Part shown: piece after piece, positions 13,061 to 61,827 of the stretch
Position numbering within the stretch: position 1 is the first letter of the stretch
Layout of the letters: each line of letters opens with the position of its first letter
Source: a virus
Lineage: Duplodnaviria > Caudoviricetes
DNA: 64,000 nucleotides
Reading direction: 5' to 3' (one strand)
Virus record (IMG/VR): IMGVR_UViG_3300021431_000075
Coordinates: 160,001-224,000 of that record
The notes under the pieces: generated by a model
The model's database searches: none
What the model was told of the DNA's origin: nothing
The model's input: only the letters and a program-made list of their open reading frames with translations
Position numbers and translations under genes: made by a program

Positions 13061-13134
13061 TGATCCAGAAGGGATTCGAACCCTTGACCCGCAGCTTAGA
13101 AGGCTGCTGCTCTATCCAGCTGAGCTACCGGACC
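13061..13134 (-). tRNA. tRNA-Arg(UCU)
   Basis: GGTCCGG acceptor, TAGCTCAGCTGGATAGAGC D-arm, anticodon loop CT-TCT-AA, GGTTCGAATCC T-arm; CCA not encoded. Confidence 0.95.
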
Positions 13135-36238: not shown

Positions 36239-37126
36239 TTAGAACAATCCGTGCTCTTCCGGCTCATAGTTCAAGTACAAAGACTCGTACACCATCGTGT
36301 CCCTGGACTTGCCAATCACCCTACGGAAAGACGAGTTTCCGCTGATGATATACATATGCTTCTTATACAGACATGCGGGAACCTTGTACGTCAAGTCTTC
36401 GTCTCCAGCCTTCCCTGCATAGCTCATAGCCCACTTACACCTTTTCTTGTTCGCGTCATCCAGCCATCTAAACAGTTCTGCATTGTCAAACCCTCCGAAG
36501 TACATCCCCTTGGTATTCGCATAAGGCGGATCCAGATACACGAAATCACCATTCTGCGGACACACATCGGCAAACGTTCTGCATATGAACTCGACTTGGT
36601 TCCTGTTCAGCAATCTTGACCATTCCGTAACTATCCTTCCAAGACTATCCGGATGAATTCCGTCCCTTGTTATGTGGAACGAATTGTTAAAATCGCCGGC
36701 AGAATTGTATCTCGGCATCCCGTTCGTTGTCGTCCGCATGATGAACATAAAGTCCAGAGGACTATGTTCCTTGTTATACCGTTCTCTAATGCTGTTGAAG
36801 AACGAGCGCTTGAACGCCTTGTCATGGTTGCCGTCGTTCATCTGGTGCCATAAATCCGAATAATGCGAAACAACCATTCTTGGACAATCCCTAATAGACT
36901 TCCAGAGATTGATTAGACCGTCGTTCAAATCAGAAGCAATGAACTTTCCGACATGATGCTCGCCGGACTCCATCAAGCAGCGGAGTACGCTACCGCCACC
37001 AATGAACGGCTCATAGTAAGTGCTTATCGTGTCGGGAAACTTGGAAACTATCTCTCCGCACTGGCTCCGCTTAGAACCGGACCACTTGATGACCGGCTCG
37101 AAAGATGTGCTCGTGAACTGTCCCAT
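36239..37126 (-). CDS. dam: DNA adenine methyltransferase (Dam/D12 class)
   Basis: IKWSGSKR, YYEPFIGGGSV, SDLN, VYLDPPY. Confidence 0.9.
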   Translation of the reverse strand: MGQFTSTSFEPVIKWSGSKRSQCGEIVSKFPDTISTYYEPFIGGGSVLRCLMESGEHHVGKFIASDLNDGLINLWKSIRDCPRMVVSHYSDLWHQMNDGNHDKAFKRSFFNSIRERYNKEHSPLDFMFIMRTTTNGMPRYNSAGDFNNSFHITRDGIHPDSLGRIVTEWSRLLNRNQVEFICRTFADVCPQNGDFVYLDPPYANTKGMYFGGFDNAELFRWLDDANKKRCKWAMSYAGKAGDEDLTYKVPACLYKKHMYIISGNSSFRRVIGKSRDTMVYESLYLNYEPEEHGLF

Positions 37127-37127
37127 G

Positions 37128-37367
37128 CTATTCTGAAATTACTGTATCGTTTTCCGGTCTTGTACGGATTGACTCCATCTGAACAGAGATTTCATCTACC
37201 CGTGTTCCGAGTTCCCTGTTCACTGTCTCCAGCGAATCAATGACACTGTCTATACGCAACGCATCTTTCGCCTGTTCCCGGATGACCTGCTGCTGCATCA
37301 GGTTCACGATGATGCACATCAGCACCACGAGACCTGCTATTATAAGAATGATAGACTTCCTGTTCAC
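37128..37367 (-). CDS. Small single-TM coiled-coil protein
   Basis: N-terminal TM followed by a heptad-like segment. Confidence 0.6.
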   Translation of the reverse strand: MNRKSIILIIAGLVVLMCIIVNLMQQQVIREQAKDALRIDSVIDSLETVNRELGTRVDEISVQMESIRTRPENDTVISE

Positions 37368-37765
37368 TGTTCTGCTGCTTTTTTGTTAGTAGATGGAAAG
37401 CGGAACTTGTCCGGACTCTCAACATCCTTCGGATCGTTCACCCGAGCCTCAACATAGTTATACTTTATTCTTGTAGACGGTCTCGACCAGCCGTTGATGT
37501 CACGCATCAGTCTGGTAGTCGTAAACTTGTACGTCTCATTCATACCAAGCATCTGCTGAATACCGTCCGAATTCATTTCAGACACGATGCCAAGCTTCGG
37601 CTGCACAGTGAACACTTTCTGCTTTGATGTGTCTCTATTGACAACGACTTTCCGAGAATAATAGGGAGACAACGTCTCTCTATCTATGCACCACTTTGTC
37701 ATGATGTCAATCGTTGATATATCAAGAACTGTCAATTCCTTCATTTTATCAAATATGTGTAACAA
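37364..37765 (-). CDS. Hypothetical protein
   Basis: 133 aa; sigma-A-like promoter at about 37814-37844. Confidence 0.65.
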   Translation of the reverse strand: MLHIFDKMKELTVLDISTIDIMTKWCIDRETLSPYYSRKVVVNRDTSKQKVFTVQPKLGIVSEMNSDGIQQMLGMNETYKFTTTRLMRDINGWSRPSTRIKYNYVEARVNDPKDVESPDKFRFPSTNKKAAEQ

Positions 37766-37897
37766 TTTATTAACGGCTCCTATATGAAAAGAGCTGTACT
37801 CTTTTTCAGGTTACAAATATAGTTCTTTTATTCGGAACCAGCAAGAAATATAAAAATAATTTAACATTTATTTGGATTGTCTCACATCTTTCAAATT

Positions 37898-37966
37898 AAA
37901 AAACCTGCGCGCTTCACAGCGCACAGGCACAAAAATAATCTAAATCTTAAATTACCATGAAAAACA
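37898..37966 (-). ncRNA. Candidate sRNA unit 1
   Basis: TTG-N20-TAACTTTG promoter (38002-37972); hairpin CCUGUGCGCU-GUGA-AGCGCGCAGG plus U6. Confidence 0.7.
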
Positions 37967-38022
37967 CTTTGCAAAGTTAATAACTTTATTTCATTCATGC
38001 AAGAAAAAATCAAAAAAATAAT

Positions 38023-38094
38023 AAAAAATCCGGCGCGCTGTCACAGCGAACCGGATTCAAAAAAAAACTTTTTAATATACTTGCAAAAATTCAT
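38023..38094 (-). ncRNA. Candidate sRNA unit 2
   Basis: TTG-N20-TATCTTTG (38130-38100); AUCCGGUUCGCU-GUGAC-AGCGCGCCGGAU plus U-tract. Confidence 0.7.
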
Positions 38095-38164
38095 CGCTGC
38101 AAAGATAGTGATTATTTTTGAACCAGACAACATAAAAACAAGTCTTTTAACTTTAATTAACGCC

Positions 38165-38250
38165 AAAAAAATCTGGCTCGCTATCACAGCGAACCAGAAA
38201 CAAAAGTACTTTTTAAATTCAAATCAACATTATTAATTAAATAATCAAAA
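38165..38250 (-). ncRNA. Candidate sRNA unit 3
   Basis: TTG-N20-TATATTTG (38286-38256); UCUGGUUCGCU-GUGAU-AGCGAGCCAGA plus U-tract. Confidence 0.7.
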
Positions 38251-38310
38251 CTTTGCAAATATAGCGATTTTGATTTTTCTGTGCAAGAAAATAATACATT
38301 TTTATGAATT

Positions 38311-38389
38311 AAAAAAACCGGCGCGCTGTCACAGCGAACCGGCTAAAAACATAAAACCTAAGAGTAATGATAGTATGTTTGCCTTTCAA
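38311..38389 (-). ncRNA. Candidate sRNA unit 4
   Basis: TTG-N20-TATATTTG (38425-38395); CCGGUUCGCU-GUGAC-AGCGCGCCGG plus U7. Confidence 0.7.
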
Positions 38390-38444
38390 CTCTGCAAATA
38401 TATAGACTTTTTTCGAAACTGACAAGAAAAAACAAAAAAATTTC

Positions 38445-38510
38445 AAAAAAAAAAAATGTCCGCGCGCTGTCACAGCGAACGGACACAACCAAATATGTAT
38501 TGTAATCGTT
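38445..38510 (-). ncRNA. Candidate sRNA unit 5
   Basis: UGUCCGUUCGCU-GUGAC-AGCGCGCGGACA plus long U-tract; no sigma-A box, TTAAATA upstream. Confidence 0.6.
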
Positions 38511-38614
38511 CACATATTTAATAGAAATATCCATCAAAAATATGCAAATAATTTTAAACTATTGTAGTAAAAATCAGTAACATTAATGGTTAAAACTTTT
38601 TAAACATAAATGTT

Positions 38615-39205
38615 ATGGATTACTACATAAAGTTATCAGACTATGCGAAGCGTTTCGGAGTGACATACCGGACTGCATGGAACCGCTACAAGCGCGGACA
38701 GTTTCCAGATGCTATAATAGACGAGACGAATCACATTTGCATACCAATCAAGCATTTTGTAAGCGATGAAAACATCTCTGTTGCAGTGTATGCACGCGTA
38801 TCTTCGTCAGAGAATAAGAGTAATCTTGACAGCCAAGCAGAACGTCTTGTGAACTATTGCATGGCTCGCGGCTACAAGGTTTCAAAGGTCGTAAAGGAAG
38901 TCGGTTCGGGGTTGAACGACGAGCGACCGAAGCTTGACAGTTTATTGAAGGACAGAAGCATAAAAATCATAGTCGTTGAACACAAGGACCGCTTCTCAAG
39001 ATTCGGTCTCAATTACATACAGACTCTGTTGAGCATGGATGACAGGAAGATAGAGATAGTTAACGAGTCTGGCGATGACAAGGAAGACTTGATGCAGGAC
39101 TTTGTCTCTATAGTGACTTCATTTTGTGCAAGGCTCTATGGGTTGCGTAGGAATAGAAGAAGGACAGAGAAGTTGATTCAGGAACTTCAGAATGAAGATA
39201 AATAA
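38615..39205 (+). CDS. tnpA: IS607 TnpA serine transposase
   Basis: MerR-like HTH, VYARVSS, EVGSGLN, VEHKDRFSRFG, SFCARLYG. Confidence 0.95.
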   Translation: MDYYIKLSDYAKRFGVTYRTAWNRYKRGQFPDAIIDETNHICIPIKHFVSDENISVAVYARVSSSENKSNLDSQAERLVNYCMARGYKVSKVVKEVGSGLNDERPKLDSLLKDRSIKIIVVEHKDRFSRFGLNYIQTLLSMDDRKIEIVNESGDDKEDLMQDFVSIVTSFCARLYGLRRNRRRTEKLIQELQNEDK

Positions 39206-39279
39206 TAATAGAATAATATAGAAATCTTTATCGAAGATAAATAATATAGAACAATATAGAAATCTTCATATAAAATATA

Positions 39280-40977
39280 GTGTCTGAACATAAGCATCAT
39301 AGAAGAAAAGTAGAAAAGAAGTCACAAAGAAAGATTTCTTCAAGTTCTTCTGTCTCTAATTCAAAGAATAAGAAGAAAAGACAGCCAAAGAAGCAGACTT
39401 TTGATGCTATGGGAATAATGCTTCGGATTTATCCGAACAGCAAGACACAGGAAGACTATATACTTCGTTCTTGTGGATGCGCTCGTCTTGTCTACAACAA
39501 GATAGTTGCGGACTATGAGTTGAAGAAAGAGCAAAGCTTAAGAGAATGGAAGAACAGTGAAACAGAGCATAAGTATCCGAAATACGGTTCGAAAGAAGGA
39601 AATGCTGTTTTGAACATGCTTAAAACCAATGAAGATTACTCGTTTCTTAAGGATGTCCATTCGAAGATGCTTCAGCAGGCAGTCTTGAATTTCTCGACCG
39701 CATTGTCAAACCATATAAGGTTCCCAGAGGATTTTGACGAGCCTGTGTTCAAGAAGAAAAGTAGACACAATGATTCGTTCCGCATTCCTATAGATGCGAT
39801 TCCCGGAAGCAATGGCAAGAAAGGAATACAATGTGTATATGGAAACAGAATATCGATTTGCTCTGAACTGACGGACGTTCTGTTTAAGTGCTCAAGACGT
39901 GACGAGAAGTATCTGAACAAGAACCAGAAGAAGATACGAAGCATAACAGTTTCTGTTGCTCCGGACGGGAAGATGTATGCTTCTGTTCTTATCGTTCCGC
40001 GCAATATAGACGTTGAAGATTGCGATATGATATGCGGTCTTGACTTGGGGCTTAAGGAGCATACGATTGAGCATCATCAGAAGATGTTCATTGATGATGA
40101 CGGCTTTGTTTCTCTTGCAGATAGTAATGTTGAGTATGTTCATATGCCGAACTTGAACAACTACAAGGATGAGAACGAAAAAGAACGAATGTTCAACAAG
40201 AACGGCGTTACAAGGCTTGAGCACTACAATAAGAAGTATATACACTGGCAGAAAGTTCTTTCAAGGACAGAGTATAATGCAAATACAAGAACTACATCAA
40301 GAAATAAAGACAACGATAAGAAACGAAACTATGACAGGGATAGTTTTCTAAACAAGAGAAGACTGAAGAATCTTGCACAATACAAGTTGAAGAGGGCAAC
40401 AACCAAGCCGTTCGGCAAGAAGCGCAAGAAGAATACATCCAAGCAAAATACAAATGTTGTATCTGAATGCAACAGACCCGTATGGCAGTACTCATCAAAC
40501 CGCCACGAGCGAATAAGGAAGCGCGCGGCGAAGTGGTCTGCGAAGATAGCGAACAAGAGAAGCGACTACAACCATAAGATTACGACAAGGCTTGTCAGAG
40601 AGAACAAGATGATAGTAACTGAGAACTTGAACGTGAGCGGTATGGTAAAGAACGGGAATCTGTCTAAAGCAATAATGAATGCTGGATGGAGCCAGTTCAC
40701 TCAGTTCTTGTCATACAAGGCTGAACGGTACGGAAGAATATACTACAAGATTGGAACATTCGCTGCATCTTCAAAGACCTGTCCGGTATGCGGGCACAAG
40801 TACAAGGAACTTACGCTTGCAGAGCGTGTGTGGACTTGCAAGAACTGCGGTGCTGTCATAAACAGGGATGAGGGTGCAAGTGACAACATAGTTTCGTTCG
40901 GAATAGAAGGATACAACGAGAAGCATCGAGCAGAACTTGACGAGCTTCGAATGAAAGACAGAGAACCAGAACTCTAA
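39280..40977 (+). CDS. tnpB: IS607 TnpB, enlarged (565 aa)
   Basis: RIYPN..CGCARLVYN HTH, GLDLGLK, TENLNV, SSKTCPVC..CKNC, NRDEGASDNI. Confidence 0.9.
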   Translation: MSEHKHHRRKVEKKSQRKISSSSSVSNSKNKKKRQPKKQTFDAMGIMLRIYPNSKTQEDYILRSCGCARLVYNKIVADYELKKEQSLREWKNSETEHKYPKYGSKEGNAVLNMLKTNEDYSFLKDVHSKMLQQAVLNFSTALSNHIRFPEDFDEPVFKKKSRHNDSFRIPIDAIPGSNGKKGIQCVYGNRISICSELTDVLFKCSRRDEKYLNKNQKKIRSITVSVAPDGKMYASVLIVPRNIDVEDCDMICGLDLGLKEHTIEHHQKMFIDDDGFVSLADSNVEYVHMPNLNNYKDENEKERMFNKNGVTRLEHYNKKYIHWQKVLSRTEYNANTRTTSRNKDNDKKRNYDRDSFLNKRRLKNLAQYKLKRATTKPFGKKRKKNTSKQNTNVVSECNRPVWQYSSNRHERIRKRAAKWSAKIANKRSDYNHKITTRLVRENKMIVTENLNVSGMVKNGNLSKAIMNAGWSQFTQFLSYKAERYGRIYYKIGTFAASSKTCPVCGHKYKELTLAERVWTCKNCGAVINRDEGASDNIVSFGIEGYNEKHRAELDELRMKDREPEL

Positions 40978-41130
40978 AAACTGGCTGCCCTTGAGTTCAG
41001 GGAGACGGGACGTGGAGATGACCTATAGGAAAACGCATTCTTTGAATGGACATGTGAGTACCAAGTCACCGATGAATCGTCAAAAGAAAGTAAACATACG
41101 GGATTCTATGAATTTCTATGTTCTACAGAA
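40978..41130 (+). ncRNA. Putative TnpB omegaRNA / right end
   Basis: ccctTGAGTTCAggg hairpin, cgtggag and gatgaatcgtcaa motifs directly after tnpB. Confidence 0.55.
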
Positions 41131-41165
41131 CTATAGAACACAAAAATTGAAAATTCCCAAATCAA

Positions 41166-41466
41166 TCAATCAGTAATCTCAAGATATCTTCTCACATCAT
41201 CCTTCTTGTAATGGCTCATGATGTAGCCATCTATCTTGTCATACAACTCTGAATAAAGAGCCGAGAACTTATTGCCATTCTTGATTACAGATGACCATGC
41301 TGGCAGAGAAGCACAGCACCGCCAAGATAAGGACTTTGATAAAATGAGGATTATCGGAGCAAAGCCCACTCGAAGCGGTGCTGAACAGTGGGAAACTGAG
41401 CGAATACATACCTACATGAAGAATCATAGAGGTAAACCCACACATTATTGTGCTGGAACACAATAA
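41166..41466. pseudogene. Two fused gene fragments on opposite strands
   Basis: Minus-strand C-terminal fragment (..SELYDKIDGYIM..LEITD*) abuts a plus-strand ITDD..REAQHRQ..WETERI fragment. Confidence 0.45.
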
Positions 41467-44279: not shown

Positions 44280-44353
44280 AAAAAAACTGCGGATGCTATC
44301 ACAGCACCCGCAGCCCAACATACTTTTAAAATTATAATGAAAAAATCAAATGT
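44280..44353 (-). ncRNA. Candidate sRNA unit 6
   Basis: TTG-N20-TATCTTTG (44389-44359); CUGCGGGUGCU-GUGAU-AGCAUCCGCAG plus U7. Confidence 0.7.
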
Positions 44354-44399
44354 TGCTGCAAAGATATGAACTTTTTTTCATCCGTGCAAGAATTTATAT

Positions 44400-44485
44400 A
44401 AAAAAAAAAAGCGATCGTTATCACAACGACCGCTCACGAAAATCAAATTGCATAATCACTTAATAAATGCTACAAAAGCTTTACT
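44400..44485 (-). ncRNA. Candidate sRNA unit 7
   Basis: TTG-N20-TATCTTTG (44521-44491); AGCGGUCGUU-GUGAU-AACGAUCGCU plus long U-tract. Confidence 0.7.
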
Positions 44486-44553
44486 CGCCGCAAAGATATG
44501 AACTTTTCACAAAATATGCAAGAGTTTGCTTCATTTTTTTCCAAACAATCAAC

Positions 44554-44618
44554 AAAAAAGCCGCTACTTATCACAAGCAACGACTCTCCCTTTTTTAACA
44601 ATTAACAAAATTATAACA
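44554..44618 (-). ncRNA. Candidate sRNA unit 8
   Basis: AGUCGUUGCUU-GUGAU-AAGUAGCGGCU plus U-tract; TATAAAT upstream (44630-44624). Confidence 0.6.
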
Positions 44619-44648: not shown

Positions 44649-45401
44649 TCACAATAAAGTGTTCAACCTGTTGCTCATAATGTCGAAGAACTTCTCATCC
44701 AGTTCTATACCGATGAACTTCATTCCACAGTTAAGAGCAGCAACTCCAGTACTTCCGCTACCGGCAGTGAAGTCAAGAACGGTCCCTCCGACCGGACAAT
44801 AAGACTTACACAGGAACTCCATCAGCTCTATCGGCTTCTGTGTAGGATGCAGCTGGTCCTGTCTTCTCCACTTCTGAGGAAAGTCAAGCACGCTGTCAGG
44901 ATGCCTCGTCCCCTTGTTGTCAGTCTCAACACCTCGGATTCCGTAGTTCATATTGTTGGTCTTGTTCGGAGTGTACGCACGCTTGTAGGGTTCACCATCT
45001 CTCATCTGCGGACAATAATACGCCGCCGAGTTTCCGAACACAAGAATGTTCTCATGCTTCTTCATCGGCATGTACTTTGCCGTGAACGGGGAACCGCACT
45101 TGCTTTTCTTCCATATGAGCTCGTATCTGTACTTCTTCTCGTTGCTCAAAGCAAGTTTGTGCGTGAAAATGCCGCCGGAAAACAGGACTATGTTCCCGTT
45201 ATCGACAACAAGAGAGTCAAGACACTTCCACATGTCAGTGAAGTCTATGATGCTCTTGTCGAACTCCGAAGAAAAGATTCCATAAGGCGGATCGCATATG
45301 ACAGCATCGACCTTGACTCCCTGCTCGATAAGAATTTTCATCTCCTCGATACAGTCTCCGTTTATAATCGTATATCTCGGATCCTCTATCTTCTGTCTCA
45401 T
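44649..45401 (-). CDS. Site-specific DNA methyltransferase (N6A/N4C, beta class)
   Basis: GDC, ICDPPY, HENILVF, HPTQKP, VLDFTAGSGST, GIELD. Confidence 0.92.
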   Translation of the reverse strand: MRQKIEDPRYTIINGDCIEEMKILIEQGVKVDAVICDPPYGIFSSEFDKSIIDFTDMWKCLDSLVVDNGNIVLFSGGIFTHKLALSNEKKYRYELIWKKSKCGSPFTAKYMPMKKHENILVFGNSAAYYCPQMRDGEPYKRAYTPNKTNNMNYGIRGVETDNKGTRHPDSVLDFPQKWRRQDQLHPTQKPIELMEFLCKSYCPVGGTVLDFTAGSGSTGVAALNCGMKFIGIELDEKFFDIMSNRLNTLL

Positions 45402-46279
45402 TTGCATTTTCGATTTGTTTTTCCTTTTTTGTGCCACCGGTTCATCATCTTGCATTCCTTTGTTTCATCGCCGCTGTTTTTTTGATTCTCTTTCAAATCT
45501 TCCATATCGCTTGTCCATCTATTCTTGTCGATAGTGCTCGACAAGACACCAAGAACAAAAAGCCACATATTAATGAATTTTCTAAAACACATAATCGCGC
45601 TTATATCATTCCTGAACCACAACGGACTAATGAAAGCCTGCCCACTATAAAAGAAACCCAAATTCTGTTGCGTAATCGCGCTGACGAACACATACTGCGG
45701 ATACAAGCCGTCTGACGACTTGGTCTTATGCATGCCAAGCGACGAGCAACTCATCAGAACAACCGGACCCTTGATTATTGACAAACTCTCGACAATCAAT
45801 TCCGGACTCTTCGCAAGCATTCCTGCATACAGATACCAGTTGCGCACATCTTGAGGATTGTCTGTCACCCCCTTCTCAACCGCACGGCTATCCCATGTAT
45901 TGTTATACAAATTGCAAATCATCTCAAGTCGCGCAAAACACTTGGCTGTATATGACCGGATTCTTTCGCAGTGCAAAGCATACTCGGAAGTTCTGGTCAA
46001 CATATCGACAGAGCTATCATCCGGCGTCATGGTGTCAGAACCGAAACTCCCTTGAAATATGCTGCAAGTGCAAAACTTAACACTGAACTCAGCCAAAATT
46101 GTCGATTCCACGCATTCATAGTCCTCAGGCTTCGCACGCTTCAGTTCAGCAGAGGTATCGACATCAACCATGAATATGCCTGTAGAACCGCAGTTCCGGA
46201 AAACGAACCTGTGCTTCGACATCATGGACAAAAAGTACTCACACTGTCCTGTATTCTTAACCGATATTGCGACTCTCAT
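45398..46279 (-). CDS. Hypothetical protein
   Basis: 293 aa, ATGA-coupled to the MTase. Confidence 0.65.
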   Translation of the reverse strand: MRVAISVKNTGQCEYFLSMMSKHRFVFRNCGSTGIFMVDVDTSAELKRAKPEDYECVESTILAEFSVKFCTCSIFQGSFGSDTMTPDDSSVDMLTRTSEYALHCERIRSYTAKCFARLEMICNLYNNTWDSRAVEKGVTDNPQDVRNWYLYAGMLAKSPELIVESLSIIKGPVVLMSCSSLGMHKTKSSDGLYPQYVFVSAITQQNLGFFYSGQAFISPLWFRNDISAIMCFRKFINMWLFVLGVLSSTIDKNRWTSDMEDLKENQKNSGDETKECKMMNRWHKKGKTNRKCK

Positions 46280-48076: not shown

Positions 48077-48502
48077 TCAAAACAGCGCGAACTCCTCTGG
48101 CTTCTTCTCCTTCTTATCAGGATAAACCGGATACTCCTGAATGTCAAGCCCCGGCATCTTCTCGTTCAGCCATTCCGCAAGAATATGCCTGTGACAGAAG
48201 TCCTCAGGTCTCTCGTAGCAGAGCATCGCGACATCCCTGCCGCCTGAAATCTGCTCAAGGAATTCCGTGATGTACTCCGGATGGAACCTGTACGCGCACA
48301 GAATCTCGTTGATATACCGTTCCTTATACTTCTCGTCGTCATGGTCCTTCTTGTGTTCCATCAGAATCGAACCGCTCGGAGCGACAGACGCAAGGTTCGG
48401 TCCTTCGAAGAACGAAGGAACTTTTAGACAAATAGCGCAGCAAGCGATTCCTGCCTTCTCAAGATTCGGAATGTTGCTAAAATACGATGTGTAAATCTTC
48501 AT
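48077..48502 (-). CDS. DUF488-family protein
   Basis: IYTSYF, VAPS, MLCYERPEDFCHRHILAEW. Confidence 0.8.
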   Translation of the reverse strand: MKIYTSYFSNIPNLEKAGIACCAICLKVPSFFEGPNLASVAPSGSILMEHKKDHDDEKYKERYINEILCAYRFHPEYITEFLEQISGGRDVAMLCYERPEDFCHRHILAEWLNEKMPGLDIQEYPVYPDKKEKKPEEFALF

Positions 48503-48521: not shown

Positions 48522-50753
48522 TTAAACAAAACTTATATATTTGCCAGAATAGTCAACATATGCAGCAGGACCTATACGGACAACGCCATCCCTGTCAACA
48601 ACAGGTCTGAACCTTATCCACTCGTCAAGCAGCTGCTTGCCTCCAGCATCAAATATGTTGTACATAAAATAGTCATAACTTCCGGTTTTCTCTATGGCAA
48701 CCAGCTCGTCAGGAACAAGCGTGTATATCTGCGTCAGTCTTTCTCTTTCGCCAATCTTCGGACTCATTAGTTTTCCGCTCTTGTATGCAAGGACATCACA
48801 ATAAATCTTCGGACTCATTAGCGTTCCGCCCTTGTATGCAAGCACATCACCGTCGTTCTTGTCAAGCCGCGTGACGAACACGAAACCGTTTTCAGCCTTT
48901 CCTTTATATAAGAACCATTCATCGGAAACCAGCCTTAATGTCTTGTCATTAATGAAGTTGAGCATCCTTCCGCTATAACCACTGTCCAACGAGTCGTCGC
49001 CGGACTTTGCAACCGTCAAGAAACCGTCATCGCAGACATCACAGTACTTCAGATTGTCCTGAACAATCCCCTTTCCCCATTCTATCACCATAGTAGGGCT
49101 TCCAAGTTCACGCACAGCAGCAACAAGATTCGGACCTACGCAGTTTACAGAATAGAACCATTCATCAGAGCATTTCACTCCGGTACTGCTTACAAGTGTT
49201 TTCTTTGCATCATTCTTGAACCACTTCATGACTTCATAGAATTTGAAGTCGCCAAACCCCAAGTTAACCGAAACGTCATCGAAGCATTCCCCGCCAAAAA
49301 GCACTTTTCCGGACCCGGTGTCCATGAACTGCCAGCAACCGTTCTTCTTGAAAGCGTATATTCCACACTCTGGCCAGCCGCAGACATCGTCGAACCATTC
49401 ATCGGAAACAGGAGTTCCGTCTTCTCTCACAAACCTGCATGTGAAATCTGTGCCGTATGCGACTTTCGCGAAACCATTCTCCATAGCGTTGCTCTTTCCG
49501 GGAATCCAATTCTCCAACACAAGAGTGCCGTCCCTGTGGACGTAGTTGCTCTTTTTCCGAACCGGAATCCCGTGCTCATTGTAACACTCTCCTTCCTTAC
49601 AAGATCTGCAGACCAGTGCGACATCGCGCTTCTTTCCATGTCCAAAATCAATAAACTCATACCACTCGCTACATACGGGCTTTCCTGTCTTGTCAATGAA
49701 GTTGTACAATTTGTCCTTCATCACAACCGCGACACCATCAACGAAGTTCTCCATCCAGTCATAATTCTCCTTGCACAAAAACGTCCCGTCCGTTGACAAG
49801 AAATTGAACTCCTTGGAACCGCCGCGCTTGACCCATGCATATCCTTCGAAAAACAAAGGAGAACAACCCAAGAAATCTTCATTCGATAGAACTCTGCCGT
49901 CCATCGTGATATAGTTGCAGCATCCTTCCGTGAACTTGACATACAGCAAACCATCGGCGCAGAACTTAGGTCCGTACTTGAATTTCGGCAATACCACGCC
50001 GATGTCGCTCAATATGGTTCCGGACGAGTCAACCAGCGACATGCTCTCGCTCCCGACCCCTGTTCCGAAAGTTGTCACCACATATCTGCTGCCGGCTTCG
50101 TCAACCGCATCCATAAGCCTGATGCGGGAAGCGGCACGGACAAAGCTTCCCTGGAGCTTGCTGACATTCTCCTTGTTCAGAACCCCGTCATCGCCACCTG
50201 CATAGAAGGACCATATGTTCTCGTCGTACGCGATGCATATTGCATATCCGGTCCGCTCATGGTTGTCCCGGCTTACCAGCTCGCTTGCAACCATGCGCAC
50301 GTTGCGGTTTTTCATACACACATTGCTTGACATGAGAACATCAATCATGGATGCAGCCATGAACGCGAATGAATCTTCATCAGAATGGTCATTGCACACA
50401 TACATGACAAATCCAAGATTCTTTGCCCGGCATAACATCACGGACGCGTCCTGACGAGAACGGCTTGTTGAATAAACGCCGATAATCTTCGAGCAATCGT
50501 TATCAAGAAACTCCATATCCGCATCCCATCCGTCAACATATCCGAGATTCTTCATTCTTTCAAGAACCGGCTCCATGACAGAACCATAAAAAATCTCATT
50601 GATTGCGGACTTGTCATTATCGTCAACATCGAAACTGAAAACGAACTCATAGCACGAGCCGGACTGTTCCTGCATATCGTCCACAACTTCATCAGTTTCC
50701 ACATCACCAAGCAGGGACTCGTTCATGCATATGATTTCCGGATGTTCTTTCAT
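48522..50753 (-). CDS. WG-repeat-like beta-repeat protein, array member 1
   Basis: MNESLL leader; N(F/Y)IDxxGxxxSxEW(F/Y)..FxxG(F/Y)A repeats; start reassigned. Confidence 0.85.
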   Translation of the reverse strand: MKEHPEIICMNESLLGDVETDEVVDDMQEQSGSCYEFVFSFDVDDNDKSAINEIFYGSVMEPVLERMKNLGYVDGWDADMEFLDNDCSKIIGVYSTSRSRQDASVMLCRAKNLGFVMYVCNDHSDEDSFAFMAASMIDVLMSSNVCMKNRNVRMVASELVSRDNHERTGYAICIAYDENIWSFYAGGDDGVLNKENVSKLQGSFVRAASRIRLMDAVDEAGSRYVVTTFGTGVGSESMSLVDSSGTILSDIGVVLPKFKYGPKFCADGLLYVKFTEGCCNYITMDGRVLSNEDFLGCSPLFFEGYAWVKRGGSKEFNFLSTDGTFLCKENYDWMENFVDGVAVVMKDKLYNFIDKTGKPVCSEWYEFIDFGHGKKRDVALVCRSCKEGECYNEHGIPVRKKSNYVHRDGTLVLENWIPGKSNAMENGFAKVAYGTDFTCRFVREDGTPVSDEWFDDVCGWPECGIYAFKKNGCWQFMDTGSGKVLFGGECFDDVSVNLGFGDFKFYEVMKWFKNDAKKTLVSSTGVKCSDEWFYSVNCVGPNLVAAVRELGSPTMVIEWGKGIVQDNLKYCDVCDDGFLTVAKSGDDSLDSGYSGRMLNFINDKTLRLVSDEWFLYKGKAENGFVFVTRLDKNDGDVLAYKGGTLMSPKIYCDVLAYKSGKLMSPKIGERERLTQIYTLVPDELVAIEKTGSYDYFMYNIFDAGGKQLLDEWIRFRPVVDRDGVVRIGPAAYVDYSGKYISFV

Positions 50754-50766
50754 ATCTTGTCTATAA

Positions 50767-52956
50767 TTATATAATGCTTGTGAAATTTCCAGAGTAGTCA
50801 ACAAACGCCGCAGGACCCACTCTTACAATGCTGTCCCTATCTGCCACAGGCCGGAACCTTGTCCATTCAGAAAGCAGTTGCCTTCCGTCAGCGTCGAACA
50901 GGTTGTACAGCATGGACTTGTTATCGTCGTCAAAAATCTCTACAACGACCAGCTTGTCCGGAACGACTGTGTATATCCGGTTCAACTTCTTTCTTTCCTT
51001 TCCGAACAACAGCACACCATTGCAAGTCAGCACGTTGTTAGTATTCACGACCACGAACCCGCTCTGCATCTTTCCGGATCGATCAAGCCAAGAATCAGAA
51101 ACAAAACTTCCATCCGGCCTGATATAATTGATTTTTTCATCCCCGTGCTCATCCTTCATCTTCACTTTCGCATATCCGCCGATAAAATGTTCACAATCGG
51201 TCAGGTTGTCAACAATAACACCGCCGCCCCACTTGGCAACCGTGCGCATTCCGTATAGTATATTACTATAGCAAACACAATCATAACCGATATATTTCAC
51301 AAAGGGCTTATAGTCATCCACGCACTTCTTTCCATCATCAGAAACAAGATTGTACATGTTCCTGTTGTCAGTTCCGCTACCGATACTCGTCACCAAATAG
51401 AAAGTCTTGTTGAAATCCTTGCTATACACCTCACGATCAACGTCATCGAACATCTCGCCGTCAAAGAGAACCTTGTTCGTACCAGCATCCATAAACTGCC
51501 ACATGTCATATCCGTTGGACTGTCTCTTCTCGAAAGCAAAGACTCCGTTCTGCGGATAGCCGCACACGTTCTTGAACCACTCCTTCGACACGAGGCTTCC
51601 GTCCGCCCTCATGAAATTATAGAGACCGTCATTGTTGCTCAACTTCGCGAACCCATTCGCCATATTTCTGGACGATTTCGAAACCCACTCGTCCAGAAGA
51701 AGGTTGCCGTCCACGTCAGCATAGTTGCTGACAAAACCGAGATTGTTAGAAGAACCGTCATGCTTGTAGACATGCATGATGCCGTTGTCTCCGATTTCGA
51801 CGAGGTCGTACCAAGTGCTCCACCTCAGGACGCCCTTGTTGTCGATGATGTTCTTTTTATCGTTGTACCCGACAACCGCATATCCGTTCTTAAAATCGGA
51901 AGCATATGAAAACTGCTTTCCGCCAAGTACGTTTCCGTCCTTGTCAAAGAAAGACCAAACGCCGGGCCTGATATTCACCCACACATATCCGTCGTTGAAG
52001 CAAAATCCGCATCCGATACAGTTCTTTCCCAAAAGCAGCGAGCCGTCCTTCCTGATGAAGTTATATGATTCGGAGAAAAATGATATGCGCATAAGACCGT
52101 TGTCGAGGAACCTGCCCCATATAAACTGCCTGATGCTGTTGCACGGATATCTGCCCAGCACTTCCCCTTCCGAAGAAAGCAGCATCGCTGCAAGACTATC
52201 AACAGATTCGCCGAAAGTCAATGCCATATACCTGCTTCCCTCGTCATCATCGGCTTTCATGAGACCTATCATGCCGGCGGTCCTGACAAACTTGCCAGCA
52301 AACGACTCACAAACATCCCGGTCCAGATTTCCGCCATAATCACCAGCATAGAACAGCCACTTGTGCCTGAACATATCCTTCTGTACTTTCTGGAAATCTA
52401 TGTCGCCGACATCATCACTATCAAGACTTCCCACATAGCGGCGGATGACACAGAACTGCATGACCGCAGAGTCGTCAACCAGCTTGTCAACAACAAGACG
52501 AACTCCGGCATGCAAATCACAAAGACCGCCGAGAACAAGAGCATGAATCAGACTCGCGCAAACCGTTCCGAAAGAGTCTCCGCGCGCATCAGAGTTGTCA
52601 AGCCAGATGTCCATCGCGAACGTCGAGGAACCCCTCTTCTTATCCTTGTTCTCCATAAAGCACTTCGAATAAGTCTTGAGAATATCAAACCGAGATATAG
52701 ACTCAATCTTCTTATAGAACTTCCACGACTTGACAAAACCCTTTCCTCGCATCCTCTGAAGCCCGGATTCCATCAACTCGAAGAATATGTTCTTAATCAT
52801 CTGCGTTGTAAAAGAATGAATAGAATAAGTATTGAAGTCGAAAGTGAACCTGAAGCACACGTTGTCTGCAAATTCATTCTCATCAACATCAAGCACTTCG
52901 TCGCTGCCGATGTTGTCAAGCAGAGACTCGTTCAGATATATCGGTAACTTTTCCAT
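50767..52956 (-). CDS. WG-repeat-like protein, member 2
   Basis: YLNESLLD leader; same repeats and VGPAAFVDYSG C-terminus. Confidence 0.85.
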   Translation of the reverse strand: MEKLPIYLNESLLDNIGSDEVLDVDENEFADNVCFRFTFDFNTYSIHSFTTQMIKNIFFELMESGLQRMRGKGFVKSWKFYKKIESISRFDILKTYSKCFMENKDKKRGSSTFAMDIWLDNSDARGDSFGTVCASLIHALVLGGLCDLHAGVRLVVDKLVDDSAVMQFCVIRRYVGSLDSDDVGDIDFQKVQKDMFRHKWLFYAGDYGGNLDRDVCESFAGKFVRTAGMIGLMKADDDEGSRYMALTFGESVDSLAAMLLSSEGEVLGRYPCNSIRQFIWGRFLDNGLMRISFFSESYNFIRKDGSLLLGKNCIGCGFCFNDGYVWVNIRPGVWSFFDKDGNVLGGKQFSYASDFKNGYAVVGYNDKKNIIDNKGVLRWSTWYDLVEIGDNGIMHVYKHDGSSNNLGFVSNYADVDGNLLLDEWVSKSSRNMANGFAKLSNNDGLYNFMRADGSLVSKEWFKNVCGYPQNGVFAFEKRQSNGYDMWQFMDAGTNKVLFDGEMFDDVDREVYSKDFNKTFYLVTSIGSGTDNRNMYNLVSDDGKKCVDDYKPFVKYIGYDCVCYSNILYGMRTVAKWGGGVIVDNLTDCEHFIGGYAKVKMKDEHGDEKINYIRPDGSFVSDSWLDRSGKMQSGFVVVNTNNVLTCNGVLLFGKERKKLNRIYTVVPDKLVVVEIFDDDNKSMLYNLFDADGRQLLSEWTRFRPVADRDSIVRVGPAAFVDYSGNFTSII

Positions 52957-52973
52957 CTCTTGTCTAATTCACA

Positions 52974-55133
52974 TTATATCAAGCATGCGATCTCACCAGA
53001 GCAGTCAACATAAGCACCAGCGCCGACCCTTATGATTCCGGACTTGTCAGCAGCAATCCAGAAATTCGTCCATTTGTCAAGCAACTGGTCACCTTCGCAG
53101 TCGAATATGTTGTACAGTCGACCCTTTTTGACTTCCTTCTCCACAATGACAACCTTGTCCGGGACAACCGCCTGCACCCTTTTCAATATGCCGTCGCAAC
53201 CGTCAAGCAGAAGTTTGCCGTTACTGCACAGCACGTTGTATTCCAGTTTTCCGGACTGCGCATAATTCACTATGCAAAAACCGTCATTCAACGTTTCTTC
53301 TGTATACAAGAACCACTTATCCGACACAAGCCGGCATTCCTTGTCGATAAAGTTGTACTCGATGTCCCCGACGCCCTTTCTGCGTCGCTCAACCCTTGCA
53401 TATCCTCTTTTGTAACATCCGATATTCTTGATGTTCTCAAGCATCACGTCGCCGCCCCATTTAGCGACCATCGTCGGAGACGTCTCATACATCCTTGCGG
53501 CAACCATGCCGTTTCCAATATCCTGCATATACTCAAACATACCGTCCATAGCCTTGACACCGTCCTTCGAAATCAAGTTCATGGCAAAAGACCGGCTTCT
53601 TCTTTTATCGCCATCATGCAAAGTATAATTTTCAACAGTATAGTTATCTTCACCCACGCCCAAGTGAACATTGTCAAACTCCTCTCCGCCGAACAGAGGC
53701 TCCAGCGTATCCACGTCCATAAACCTCCACTTATCATCAGGCGCATATTTGTACGCTATCACGCCACGTTCCGGACAGCCGAGAACTTGCGCGAACCATC
53801 GTCTGGACAAAAGATTTCCATCTTGCTTCAGATAGTTGTAAGCATCCCTTCTCTTATCCCAAAGCAATGCGAAACCGTCCTCCATAGGCTCGCAATCATA
53901 GTCAACCCATTTTCTCATAATCGTCTTGCCGTCCATGTCTATGTAATTATACAACGAATCGCCTTTGACTTTCTTTCCAACTCTGAATATCATACCAGAA
54001 GTTCCTGTTCCGGGTTCTATATCTTCATACCACTTTCTAAAGATGGTCTTTCCGCTCGTGTCGATGACGTTTTCCTTGCCATTGTCGTTGACCACGGACA
54101 ATCCGCCATCAAACTCGCTCATATGGCTAAACCATTTATTACATAGAATATTTCCGGCGGCATCAACCATGTTGTTGTGCGAGTTGCCGTCTTCAACCAG
54201 CGCGTATCCGTCTGAGAAAGTCTTGCTACACTCGTTATAATCCCTATCCGACAACAGGGTTCCGTCCTTGCGGATAAAATTATATAAACATCTTTCGAAT
54301 TTCACATATAGCAAGCCGTTGTCAAGAAACTTCGGACCGTAATCAATTTCGTCCAGATTCCCAGGATAAGATGCAATCATTCTGCCGTCCCGTCCGAACA
54401 TATAAAATTTATCATTATTGTTCATATCATAATGCAATAGCGCGAACAGCACTATGTATATGCCAGTCTCATCATCGACCGCCGACATCAATCCTGAGGA
54501 AGAAGCTGTCCTAACAAAGCCGCCGGCAAATGAAACGCATGCGCTCCGGTCAATATTCATGTCATCTTTTCCCGCATAAAAATACCATTCCTTGTTTTCA
54601 AAATACACGCACCGGATTTCATCTGTTTCGCTACCGTTCTCGAATCTTGTCAATCCGAGCCTTACCCCATAATCCCCCGACATGATGCCACTTGACTTAA
54701 ATGAAAATAACAGCACTCCGCTAACATATCCAAGCACATCCTCACTGAACGAACGACTGTCAAAAACAACATGCACGGAAAATGTGTCTGTATTCTTGTA
54801 GTATTTCTTTGCAGGTTGATAATTATGCATGTACCTTGAAAACCTATCAATAAAATTCGAAAGAGCGGACGAGCCGAACTTATTGTCAACCTTCTTGATG
54901 CAAGTCCACGACCTGACAACTCCCTTCCTCGCCATTGTTGCAAGCACAGGCTCTATGACCGTGTCGAAGAACATGCTCTTGACATTCAAAATGTCACTTC
55001 TGAAATTGAACGAGAACTTATACTCGACTACGTTTCCGTTGTCAAAATCGTCATTGTCGTCAGTCACCTCGTCTATGCCGATGCCGTCAAGCAGGGACTC
55101 GTTCAAATATGCGCTATATGGATAATCTCTCAT
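52974..55133 (-). CDS. WG-repeat-like protein, member 3
   Basis: YLNESLLD leader; same architecture. Confidence 0.85.
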   Translation of the reverse strand: MRDYPYSAYLNESLLDGIGIDEVTDDNDDFDNGNVVEYKFSFNFRSDILNVKSMFFDTVIEPVLATMARKGVVRSWTCIKKVDNKFGSSALSNFIDRFSRYMHNYQPAKKYYKNTDTFSVHVVFDSRSFSEDVLGYVSGVLLFSFKSSGIMSGDYGVRLGLTRFENGSETDEIRCVYFENKEWYFYAGKDDMNIDRSACVSFAGGFVRTASSSGLMSAVDDETGIYIVLFALLHYDMNNNDKFYMFGRDGRMIASYPGNLDEIDYGPKFLDNGLLYVKFERCLYNFIRKDGTLLSDRDYNECSKTFSDGYALVEDGNSHNNMVDAAGNILCNKWFSHMSEFDGGLSVVNDNGKENVIDTSGKTIFRKWYEDIEPGTGTSGMIFRVGKKVKGDSLYNYIDMDGKTIMRKWVDYDCEPMEDGFALLWDKRRDAYNYLKQDGNLLSRRWFAQVLGCPERGVIAYKYAPDDKWRFMDVDTLEPLFGGEEFDNVHLGVGEDNYTVENYTLHDGDKRRSRSFAMNLISKDGVKAMDGMFEYMQDIGNGMVAARMYETSPTMVAKWGGDVMLENIKNIGCYKRGYARVERRRKGVGDIEYNFIDKECRLVSDKWFLYTEETLNDGFCIVNYAQSGKLEYNVLCSNGKLLLDGCDGILKRVQAVVPDKVVIVEKEVKKGRLYNIFDCEGDQLLDKWTNFWIAADKSGIIRVGAGAYVDCSGEIACLI

Positions 55134-55152
55134 CGCCTTTTCGTCAATTCAA

Positions 55153-57372
55153 TTATATTATGCTTATCGTTTTTCCGGAATAGTCAACATACGAGCACGA
55201 ACCGACCTTTATGATTCCGCTTCCCGCATCGGCTATCCTGAACTTTGTCCACTCGCCAAGCAGCTGCTTTCCGTCAGCATCGAACAGGTTGTACACGACA
55301 TTGCTGCCCCTGTCCATCGCCTTGACAACAACCAGCTCGTCAGCAACCACCGCATATATATGTAGTAGTGCCATCTTCGACGACTTGCAGTCGAATATGA
55401 TGTTTCCGCTCCTGCAAGCCAGCACTCCGACACTGGCGCTGTCCCGAGTCATCCTGACAACAGCGAAGCCGCCGTGCGAGACTTCGTAAACACGTTCGAA
55501 CCAGACACCGGACACGAGTTTTCCGTCCTCTCCTATGAAGTTGTACTTGCCTTCGAGAGATTTCACCTTCGCATAACCATCAGAGAACTCTTCCATACCT
55601 ATGACATTCCTGTCAATGAATACTCCGTTGGAACCCCACTTCAAGAGCATAATCGAACGGCATTCCGCGCTCATCAAGACAGACGCGAATCCGTTGCCCA
55701 TATACTTGACTTGCATGAAGCCGGAACCGCTGCAGCACATGACACCGTCTGCGGAAATCAGGTTGCACAACTTTCTGCCCGGATGTTTCGGATCATTAAG
55801 CGTCACTTCATAGTACATGAATCCGTCTTTCCCGCTCTTGGTACACACGCTCCAAAAAGCGGTTCCGCCGAACAAGACACTGTTCGTTTCTGAACTCCTG
55901 AACTCCCACATCAACAATCCGTCTTCATGCTGGACGAGAGCGGCAAATACTCCATGTTCAGGCCATCCGCACACGCCTTTGAACCAGTCTTCAGACACAA
56001 TGCTTCCGTCAGACCTCATGTAGTTGTAAACTTTATATGTTCCATCAGACTTGCACAACTTCGCGAAACCGTTCTTCATCACATCGCAGTCTCCGAGAAT
56101 AAACTTGTCAAGAAGGAGTTTGCCGCTACGGTCAATGAAATTGCACCCGCGTCTGTCGCTGTCATTGCCGATATCTACCACCAGCGCGACGTCACGCCTG
56201 CAACTGACTCCCGGTTCGGGAGAATCATAACTGATACTGTCATACCACTCTCTGGAAATGAACTTGCCGCTCGTGTCAACAACGTTCATCTTCATTTTCG
56301 AGTCGGTTGAACCGCTGCCGAACAGTCTGGTCACCAGAGCGAGTCCGTCCACGAAGTTGCCGACATGCCAGCACCACTCGTCAAGCAGCGTGTTTCCGTC
56401 ACTGTCTATCAGGTTGTACTCGTTCAACACACCTCCAGTTTTCCGGCTGACAGCGGCATAGCCGTCAGGAAAGCTCTCCGAACCGCTGGCAAGATTCCCC
56501 TCAATCAACATGCTCCCGTCCATCTTCAGGTAGTTCACCCTGTTCTCTTCCAGCTTCACGTACATCAGTCCGTTGTCAAGGTACCTCCCGTTCTTTGCAT
56601 TGTAAAGCTCGACCATGTACTGCTCGAGAACATTGCCGCCGGAATCGATGACGAACATGTTCTCGTCGCCCGTGTTCTTTCCGAACGAGTATGCAACATA
56701 CCGGCTCGCATTGTCATCCACAGATTCCATGATTCCGAGCGTCCTTGCAATCCTGACGAAGCATCCAGCAAGCCTCGAACTGCCGAAGTTCTCGTTGTTT
56801 CCGTCCTCTCCGCAATGGAAGATCCACCTGTTACCAGAATCATAGAACACGCAGTAGTTATATTGATGCGAAGAATTGTCATTGTCCGTCTTCCAGAATG
56901 CCATCCTCACGAAACCGTTGTCCGAGACGCCGCTTGCAATGACATACTGCATCATGCGCGCTGCAATCTCGCAAAGGCACTCGGCATTCTCATCATCCGT
57001 CGGAACACAGACGCGAACAGACCGGACTACCGCCTTCCTGTTGTATGCTGCTTTCGCAGACATGCCGTAAATCCGTTCCGCATACGCGTCGATGAGCGGA
57101 AACTCATCCTGAACGTAATTCATATCGTCCAAAGACCATGAACCGACATTCCCTCTTGACCTCAGCATATCAAGAACAGGCTCCATGCAGGTGCCGAAGA
57201 ATATGTTATTGACAGCATGGGTTCCATACTCGCTCTTGGAGTTGAAATGGAACATGAACCTGTACTCGGCAGTCCGTTCATGACCGTTCGATTCGTCATT
57301 CACCTCGTCGGTCTCCACCTTGTCAAGCAGGGTCTCGTTCAGCGCGTATATGTCATTCAAAAACCTTCTCAT
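55153..57372 (-). CDS. WG-repeat-like protein, member 4
   Basis: YALNETLLD leader; same architecture. Confidence 0.85.
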   Translation of the reverse strand: MRRFLNDIYALNETLLDKVETDEVNDESNGHERTAEYRFMFHFNSKSEYGTHAVNNIFFGTCMEPVLDMLRSRGNVGSWSLDDMNYVQDEFPLIDAYAERIYGMSAKAAYNRKAVVRSVRVCVPTDDENAECLCEIAARMMQYVIASGVSDNGFVRMAFWKTDNDNSSHQYNYCVFYDSGNRWIFHCGEDGNNENFGSSRLAGCFVRIARTLGIMESVDDNASRYVAYSFGKNTGDENMFVIDSGGNVLEQYMVELYNAKNGRYLDNGLMYVKLEENRVNYLKMDGSMLIEGNLASGSESFPDGYAAVSRKTGGVLNEYNLIDSDGNTLLDEWCWHVGNFVDGLALVTRLFGSGSTDSKMKMNVVDTSGKFISREWYDSISYDSPEPGVSCRRDVALVVDIGNDSDRRGCNFIDRSGKLLLDKFILGDCDVMKNGFAKLCKSDGTYKVYNYMRSDGSIVSEDWFKGVCGWPEHGVFAALVQHEDGLLMWEFRSSETNSVLFGGTAFWSVCTKSGKDGFMYYEVTLNDPKHPGRKLCNLISADGVMCCSGSGFMQVKYMGNGFASVLMSAECRSIMLLKWGSNGVFIDRNVIGMEEFSDGYAKVKSLEGKYNFIGEDGKLVSGVWFERVYEVSHGGFAVVRMTRDSASVGVLACRSGNIIFDCKSSKMALLHIYAVVADELVVVKAMDRGSNVVYNLFDADGKQLLGEWTKFRIADAGSGIIKVGSCSYVDYSGKTISII

Positions 57373-57385
57373 TTCGCATATTCGA

Positions 57386-61809: not shown

Positions 61810-61827
61810 CTTTCCATATCGTCTCGA

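Follow-up and report, generated by a model that had tools for sequence, protein, structure and literature searches.

The window analysed here is a 64,000-nucleotide (nt) stretch corresponding to bases 160001–224000 of a 673,114-bp IMG/VR record (IMGVR_UViG_3300021431_000075; Caudoviricetes), a phage genome with direct terminal repeats and 40.6% G+C. Its minus strand at 37895–38425 probably carries (we would put the chance at about 0.6) a tandem array of four independent small RNA (sRNA) genes built like FopS, a multicopy sRNA family: unit 1 would be a diverged fopS gene retaining the R1′ seed only, and units 2–4 would bear phage-specific seeds. As in bacterial FopS, transcription of each gene would begin at a sigma-A-type promoter of the host kind, and the RNA would have a single-stranded 5′ body and end in an intrinsic terminator whose loop is G-Y-G-A. 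In Bacteroides thetaiotaomicron, FopS pairs with the start region of susC-type mRNAs and blocks their translation, a block that is relieved by RbpB (Ruttiger et al. 2025, PMC11697453). Unit 1 is most likely a mimic of host FopS that acts against SusC-type transporters: it would anneal, as FopS does, around the start codon of host susC-type (TonB-dependent transporter) mRNAs and keep translation from being initiated. Outer-membrane glycan transporters would in this way be shut down early in infection, presumably to the benefit of the phage. An initial annotation, made from the letters alone, had described the locus as five promoter-guide-hairpin units in which a constant protein-binding scaffold is joined to variable guides against start codons.

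Five hairpins lie on the minus strand at 37895–38486 at spacings of 127, 143, 145 and 141 nt (Table 1). All five contain the inner motif CGCU-GUGA(N)-AGCG (CGCTGTGA(N)AGCG; CGCUGUGA(N)AGCG), and CGCUGUGA(N)AGCG occurs only five times in the 673-kb genome, always in this array (array 1). Units 1–4 each stand behind a perfect Bacteroidota promoter, TTG-N20-TAnnTTTG, as had been proposed. The pattern TTGC-N16–22-TAnnTTTG, which fits the Bacteroidota sigma-A promoter, is found 15 times in the window where 1.78 occurrences are expected. From the predicted start to the hairpin the bodies of units 1–4 measure 37–53 nt; a G+C-rich stem and a U-tract follow, and the predicted unit RNAs fold much better than their own shuffled versions (z = −2.5 to −4.9). 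Units 1–4 look like independently transcribed sRNA genes. The description of a five-unit array was right as to the five hairpins and their spacing of 127–145 nt but not as to unit 5, which lacks a promoter and is not a unit. A blastn search of the phage collection with array 1 gave no match.

The best Rfam match of the region is that of unit 1 to RF04319 (FopS), which extends over the full length of 37895–37967 (37.8 bits, E = 0.0015). Nucleotides 1–15 of unit 1 are the FopS R1′ seed GUGUUUUUCAUGGUA, with 15 of 15 positions identical. This seed begins 4 nt past the −7 box TAnnTTTG, at the predicted start, exactly as in bacterial fopS genes, and promoter and seed together align with a bacterial fopS gene at 78% identity over 92 nt (E = 3e−11). 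The terminators of unit 1 and of the best-matching bacterial fopS gene have the core GCUGUGAAGC in common. What had been seen on the plus strand as a start region, taccATGAAAAACAC, is the complement of the unit 1 seed. Units 2–4 neither match RF04319 nor contain the R1′ seed, and unit 3 gives only a BTnc201 match at E = 0.17 in Rfam; the link to the RbpB-associated FopS family, which the initial annotation had suggested, holds for unit 1.

The promoter followed by the FopS seed was found at no fewer than 120 loci across Bacteroidales, rumen Prevotella included, and the rumen Prevotellaceae and Paludibacteraceae genomes searched contain 2–5 true FopS copies each. Many of the copies in four rumen Prevotella-type genomes (G001–G004) have the seed variant GUGUUUUUCAUAGUA (G-to-A at position 12); in the phage the seed has the canonical CAUGGUA. 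Four promoter and FopS-seed matches lie within 1.8 kb of the chromosome of Dysgonomonas sp. 521 (L121, NZ_QVMO01000008.1, 3318–5119), so that tandem fopS clusters occur in bacteria too. One FopS copy in a Bacteroides phage had already been mentioned (PMC11697453). Six IMG/VR contigs contain copies above the cut-off (∼77 bits), and phage-borne FopS appears to be commoner than that single case. The IMG/VR contigs L062, L067 and L068 (63, 114 and 21 kb) combine a full-scoring FopS gene (∼77 bits) with group I introns.

Twenty-two distinct hairpins from the phage and its relatives were aligned. Eight of the 10 base pairs have changed on both sides, and 94.5% of the paired cells can pair, compared with 74% in shuffles (none of 500 came up to 94.5%) and 24–49% in slid controls; the G-Y-G-A loop and the U-A pair that closes it are invariant. 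The outer stems differ and yet stay paired, as had been noted, and a covariance model built from these hairpins recovers exactly the eight copies previously counted in the genome, five in array 1 and three at 44283–44588. The structure is real and under selection; it represents an intrinsic terminator of the host type, with G-Y-G-A as its loop. Matches to the model were found in 35 of 151 host-family genomes. In all six top matches inspected the hairpin and its U-tract stand downstream of other sequence, in at least three cases just past an apparent stop codon, and none of the six is preceded by a FopS seed or promoter box. GNGA loops are present in the terminators of 104 of 130 bacterial FopS units, the rest having no script-detectable loop. 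In the phage itself each array opens with a hairpin that serves as the terminator of a protein-coding operon. The genome contains ∼105 terminator-like hairpins; ten have a GUGA loop, eight of these in the two arrays. Other GUGA-loop hairpins with a U-tract outside the arrays were seen at genome positions 50215 (plus strand), 270644, 475873 and 246886 (minus strand), and for two of these (50215 and 270644) a script searched the 160 nt upstream and detected no promoter of strict consensus. A 16-mer of the hairpin gave 60 scattered matches in viral contigs, single in all but one contig and apparently due to chance.

These results bear on the proposal that the locus is a programmable system, in which a dedicated protein would recognise the constant hairpin and use the variable parts as guides. 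The invariant loop and closing pair would suit such a system, as would the 126-amino acid (aa) gene that is always adjacent to the array. Nevertheless, hairpins of this type are found at the ends of ordinary genes, both in host-family genomes and in the phage, so that the hairpin need not be a scaffold set apart for protein binding, and GNGA loops belong to bacterial FopS terminators as well. For the 126-aa protein there is no match in Pfam or PHROG, its AlphaFold model is unusable (predicted local distance difference test, pLDDT, 39.9), and its adjacency reflects general synteny. We consider the proposal very unlikely. Equally, the hairpin that ends an operon at the start of each array, together with the promoter of the next gene that follows the last cassette, would be expected of a terminator/promoter stack that shields adjacent operons from one another or captures host RNA polymerase, the short transcripts being by-products. 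A single terminator would be enough, and such a stack would leave unexplained why the FopS seed stands exactly at the predicted transcript 5′ end in three lineages; it is a most improbable explanation.

Relatives of the locus were collected as syntenic contigs via homologues of the flanking 126-aa and 363-aa proteins; the 363-aa neighbour had no match in the viral-contig collection, and a metagenome scan added no further contig. In lineage A, to which the window belongs, array 1 consists of an operon terminator and four cassettes, and array 2 of two cassettes and an operon terminator. Lineage B (L071–L075) has an operon terminator and six cassettes in array 1 and two cassettes in the array 2 region, while lineage C (L076–L078), whose contigs do not cover the array 2 region, has at least three cassettes in array 1. 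In lineage D (L315 and L316) the array 2 region contains two identical hairpins. The FopS-seed cassette is the only one that is orthologous in lineages A, B and C, and in each of them it closes the array, next to the 126-aa gene. The seed does not vary among the three lineages, but the rest of the body diverges: at nt 16–31 the phage copies agree with FopS at 2 to 9 of 16 positions, and the lineage-B orthologue of unit 1 scores 27.4 bits against RF04319, compared with 66–79 bits for bacterial and other phage FopS copies. In a second cassette, b4/c1, a ∼25-nt 5′ core has been retained between lineages B and C with fewer changes than the cassette's own promoter. The close relative L314 has units 3 and 4 in nearly the same form. 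Hairpins are homogenised within each lineage.

A second array on the same strand of the window, at 44280–44584, comprises three more hairpins with other stems and GUGAU loops. Its units 6 and 7, like units 2–4, are predicted to combine the chassis of unit 1 with different seeds peculiar to the phage, and unit 6 has the related anti-start element UUUUUUCAU.

Potential targets were sought by predicted pairing with 29 SusC start regions from three candidate-host genomes, an in silico proxy in which each RNA was compared with 60 shuffles. The host FopS consensus reached −10.9 kcal/mol versus −8.3 kcal/mol in shuffles, none of which was as good (0/60). The same count was obtained for unit 6 (0/60), and the lineage-B FopS-seed unit was equalled by a single shuffle (1/60). 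Eight of 60 shuffles were as good as unit 2, and units 3, 4 and 7 and the remaining cassettes of lineages B and C were indistinguishable from shuffles. The idea of anti-start-codon guides is thus retained for the FopS-seed and UUUUUUCAU units, which are predicted to pair with SusC starts; it is unsupported for units 2–4, where an anti-AUG is absent or uncertain and SusC pairing resembles that of shuffles. When each body was compared with the complete phage genome, its ungapped complementarity likewise did not exceed that of 60 shuffles. No body homologues of units 2–4 were found in 401 Bacteroidales genomes and 301 Prevotella-genus genomes, and none of the lineage-B bodies in 301 Prevotella-genus genomes (a sample that may overlap the former). 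Searches of host genomes returned only promoter similarity, the fopS promoter with its seed, and chance A/T-rich matches, that of unit 3 included. Exact 13-mer complements of the seed in host genomes proved to be the fopS genes themselves; with up to two mismatches there were 92 matches versus 53 for the control, and 11 of 12 checked were not at real start codons.

Several observations weigh against reading the array as four FopS-type sRNA genes. The score of unit 1 lies below the Rfam gathering cut-off of 56 bits. Unit 1 also lacks the second FopS module UUAGAUUUAAGGUUAA (UUAGAUU..AAGGUUAA, part of a 41-nt motif), which follows the seed in ∼95% of 123 bacterial FopS copies; AAGGUU is present in 96% of these and in none of the three phage lineages. 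Its pairing with SusC starts exceeds that of shuffles only modestly (4/60 as good) and is inferior to that of host FopS. Except for the FopS-seed unit and b4/c1, the bodies, including those of units 2–4, are unrelated between lineages, which indicates turnover, and units 2–4 are without detectable homologues or targets in the genomes and start regions searched. Lineage D has no array 1. In L314, which is 95–100% identical, an IS605-type insertion interrupts the array (L314:4054–6010); this IS200/IS605-type element encodes a 143-aa Y1 transposase and a 470-aa TnpB, and with it ∼124 bp were deleted, so that unit 2 has lost its 3′ half and unit 1 its promoter and seed. Because of this insertion/deletion and the absence in lineage D, array 1 must be dispensable in at least some variants. 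The locus is accessory and dynamic and has been hit more than once by insertion sequences (ISs) that encode TnpB, for which the array looks like a hotspot.

Such facts would be accommodated if only the FopS-seed unit, if any, were functional and units 2–4 were decaying cassette duplicates without specific targets, gene conversion keeping their promoters and terminators alike. Turnover of all bodies except the FopS-seed unit and b4/c1, the failure to find targets or homologues, the homogenised hairpins and the losses in L314 and lineage D are what decay would produce; perfect −33/−7 boxes in all promoters, perfect stems in all terminators, conservation of the b4/c1 core beyond its own promoter and the near identity of units 3 and 4 in L314 are not. 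We regard such decay as possible though doubtful, and allow that units 2–4 may be either lineage-specific regulators or decaying duplicates.

A bolder extension of the FopS-type reading, offered tentatively, is that the arrays form a modular toolkit: a chassis of promoter and GNRA-capped terminator would have been duplicated and fitted with fast-evolving 5′ seeds that silence, at an early stage of infection, a set of host mRNAs peculiar to each lineage; SusC-type transporters would be the targets of the FopS-seed and UUUUUUCAU units. If so, the locus would represent natural multiplexed knock-down by a megaphage, in a place that attracts TnpB transposons, and SusC-type transporters may serve as receptors or nutrient gates. 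Another role for the same transcripts would be that of an RNA sponge, in which phage sRNAs, abundant, single-stranded and rich in U/A, would sequester the host RNA recognition motif protein RbpB, the FopS antagonist, and reinforce the shutdown of polysaccharide utilisation loci. The affinity of RbpB for single-stranded regions of FopS and other sRNAs is micromolar, and the protein works against FopS (PMC11697453); a family search found no RRM_1 protein encoded by the phage. However, most of the 41-nt motif and of the 55-nt region to which RbpB binding on FopS was mapped (PMC11697453) is absent from the phage units, and we find a sponge improbable.

The array also contains open reading frames (ORFs) of 40–79 aa (e.g. 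37997–38236, plus strand), and the initial annotation had named short plus-strand ORFs as the alternative products. We give this almost no credence: the ORFs are not conserved in the relatives, where all tblastn matches are short and overlap conserved promoters and hairpins, whereas the real flanking genes match at E = 1e−53 and 1e−8. Three other kinds of repeat-bearing loci were considered and rejected. In a type III toxin-antitoxin system, ToxI-like near-identical tandem repeats of ∼36 nt under one promoter precede the gene of a ToxN-type endoribonuclease; here the units measure 125–145 bp, have their own promoters and terminators and contain unrelated bodies, and the downstream 126-aa protein shows no family match that would make it a ToxN-type neighbour. 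A CRISPR array, or an anti-CRISPR RNA mimicking its repeats, would have 28–37-nt repeats alternating with spacers of much the same length in one transcript, which does not agree with a period of 125–145 bp and internal promoters and terminators; the Rfam scan of the array region found no CRISPR-type family. The omega-RNA of a TnpB element (IS607/IS605) would overlap the 3′ end of tnpB and the right end of the element and have its guide past that end. The array is no such RNA either: it lies outside the left end of the IS, on the opposite strand, and is present without the IS in relatives.

What had been taken for unit 5 is a terminator hairpin and U-tract that belong to the upstream operon. 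The supposed guide, acaaccaaatATGtattg, marks the point at which the left end of an IS607-family element joins the locus; ∼10–15 nt (the boundary is ambiguous) separate the hairpin from the IS end, and nt 4–34 of this guide recur exactly elsewhere in the genome. A second IS607 copy, 88% identical, is located at genome positions 117441–120054, and the IS607 junctions have the 3-nt TAT in common. In L314, which is 95% identical across the array, the site is unoccupied and a homologous hairpin stands directly 3′ of the upstream gene. Lineage B (L072) likewise has an unoccupied site, with the upstream gene followed by the hairpin. Because the hairpin directly follows the upstream gene at unoccupied sites, the unit 5 hairpin is identified as the terminator of that operon; the IS607 TnpA/TnpB element is inserted between the gene and its terminator, which would thereby have been cut off. 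The 250-aa gene that precedes the 103-aa homologue of the upstream gene in lineage B is missing from the window locus. The TnpB-like protein is unusually long (565 aa) and had no match in the genome-contig collection. Two solo right-end copies of ∼152 nt, which start just past the tnpB stop and have different flanks, are present at genome positions 585754–585907 and 643562–643717; they could be stand-alone omega-RNA-like genes or just remnants.

Table 1. Predicted features of the two arrays and adjacent genes (window coordinates)
Feature	Position	Strand	Remarks
126-aa gene	37364..37744	−	no family match; directly downstream of array 1; own promoter 37814–37844; anchor for finding relatives
Unit 1, putative FopS-seed sRNA, ∼73 nt	37895..37967	−	seed GUGUUUUUCAUGGUA, internal hairpin, GUGA-tetraloop terminator; from Rfam RF04319 and fold
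Promoter of unit 1	37972..38002	−	TTG-N20-TAACTTTG; aligns with bacterial fopS promoters
Unit 2, predicted sRNA, ∼77 nt	38019..38095	−	begins GAUGAAUUUUUGCAAG; no anti-AUG; no bacterial homologue of body found
Promoter of unit 2	38100..38130	−	TTG-N20-TATCTTTG; 88–91% like ordinary Prevotella promoters
Unit 3, predicted sRNA, ∼87 nt	38165..38251	−	A/U-rich body, no anti-AUG
Promoter of unit 3	38256..38286	−	promoter pattern
Unit 4, predicted sRNA, ∼82 nt	38309..38390	−	begins GUUGAAAGGCAAACAUACUAUCAU; body kept in L314 with 1-nt deletion
Promoter of unit 4	38395..38425	−	promoter pattern
‘Unit 5’, terminator hairpin and U-tract of upstream operon	38444..38486 (hairpin 38456–38486)	−	no promoter
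IS607-family insertion	38498..41134	+	boundaries ambiguous by 3 nt (TAT)
TnpA serine recombinase of IS607 element	38615–39205		Pfam Resolvase
565-aa TnpB-like protein of IS607 element	39280–40977		Pfam OrfB_IS605, Cas12f1-like_TNB
3′ part of upstream gene terminated by unit 5 hairpin	41166..41369	−	tblastn to 103-aa gene of L072/L074, E 1e−8
Unit 6, predicted sRNA	44280..44354	−	contains UUUUUUCAU; promoter 44359–44389
Unit 7, predicted	44401..44486	−	promoter 44491–44521
Hairpin 8, GUGAU loop	44554..44584	−	terminator of N6_N4 DNA methyltransferase gene (44649–45455)

From the promoter type, the FopS seed and the sheep and cattle rumen metagenomes that are the source of the contigs with homologous loci, the host is most likely a rumen member of Bacteroidales. 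The long ORFs of the window stay intact under code 11. Terminase_6C was not found in the phage, and a 930-aa phage protein had no match in the phage collection. The sole Rfam match above cut-off in the window is a tRNA gene at 13061–13134 on the minus strand (67 bits). Both arrays are flanked by genes for a D12-class N6-adenine methyltransferase (36239–37126), the N6_N4 methyltransferase and a DUF488 protein (48077–48502), and this region looks like an early or anti-restriction module. At 48522–64000 there is a tandem run of at least six paralogous genes for proteins of 716–760 aa with a weak WG_beta_rep match, homologues of which flank the arrays in the relatives.

Polysaccharide utilisation in gut Bacteroides is under post-transcriptional control in which FopS sRNAs play a central part. 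A pared-down FopS seed gene in a giant rumen phage, accompanied by further sRNA genes on the same chassis, suggests that phages hijack the FopS network, the likely effect being that outer-membrane SusC-type transporters are switched off. The promoter and seed matches across Bacteroidales extend FopS-type seeds well beyond Bacteroidaceae, and the locus offers natural seed variants for studies of sRNA targeting in a phylum without Hfq and ProQ. If units 2–4 are active, the array would be among the densest sRNA gene arrays known in a virus.

Unit 1 resembles FopS (RF04319; PMC11697453) in its canonical sigma-ABfr promoter with a start 4 nt past the −7 box, its length of ∼70 nt, its single-stranded 5′ seed GUGUUUUUCAUGGUA and its Rho-independent terminator with a GNGA loop. 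The phage array differs in that units 2–4 and 7 have unrelated 5′ regions and in that FopS genes are dispersed on the B. thetaiotaomicron chromosome, whereas the phage genes are arranged head-to-tail at 125–145 bp in a megaphage. GibS of B. thetaiotaomicron (RF04182) shares the R1 core GUGUUUUUCAU and a GUGA-type loop; it differs in its size of ∼140 nt, its second seed (R2) and its non-canonical promoter, and its match here reaches only E = 3.1. Tandem sRNA genes, each with its own promoter and terminator, are also known from Listeria, where LhrC1-4 are chromosomal and their seeds are common to the paralogues; in the phage the same arrangement is found but the seeds differ and the array is borne by a phage. 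DicF is a phage/prophage sRNA that acts on host mRNAs. The phage sRNAs would likewise be products of a mobile element that repress host mRNAs by base pairing at their start regions, but in another phylum, without Hfq, from a multi-gene array and by mimicry of a host sRNA seed.

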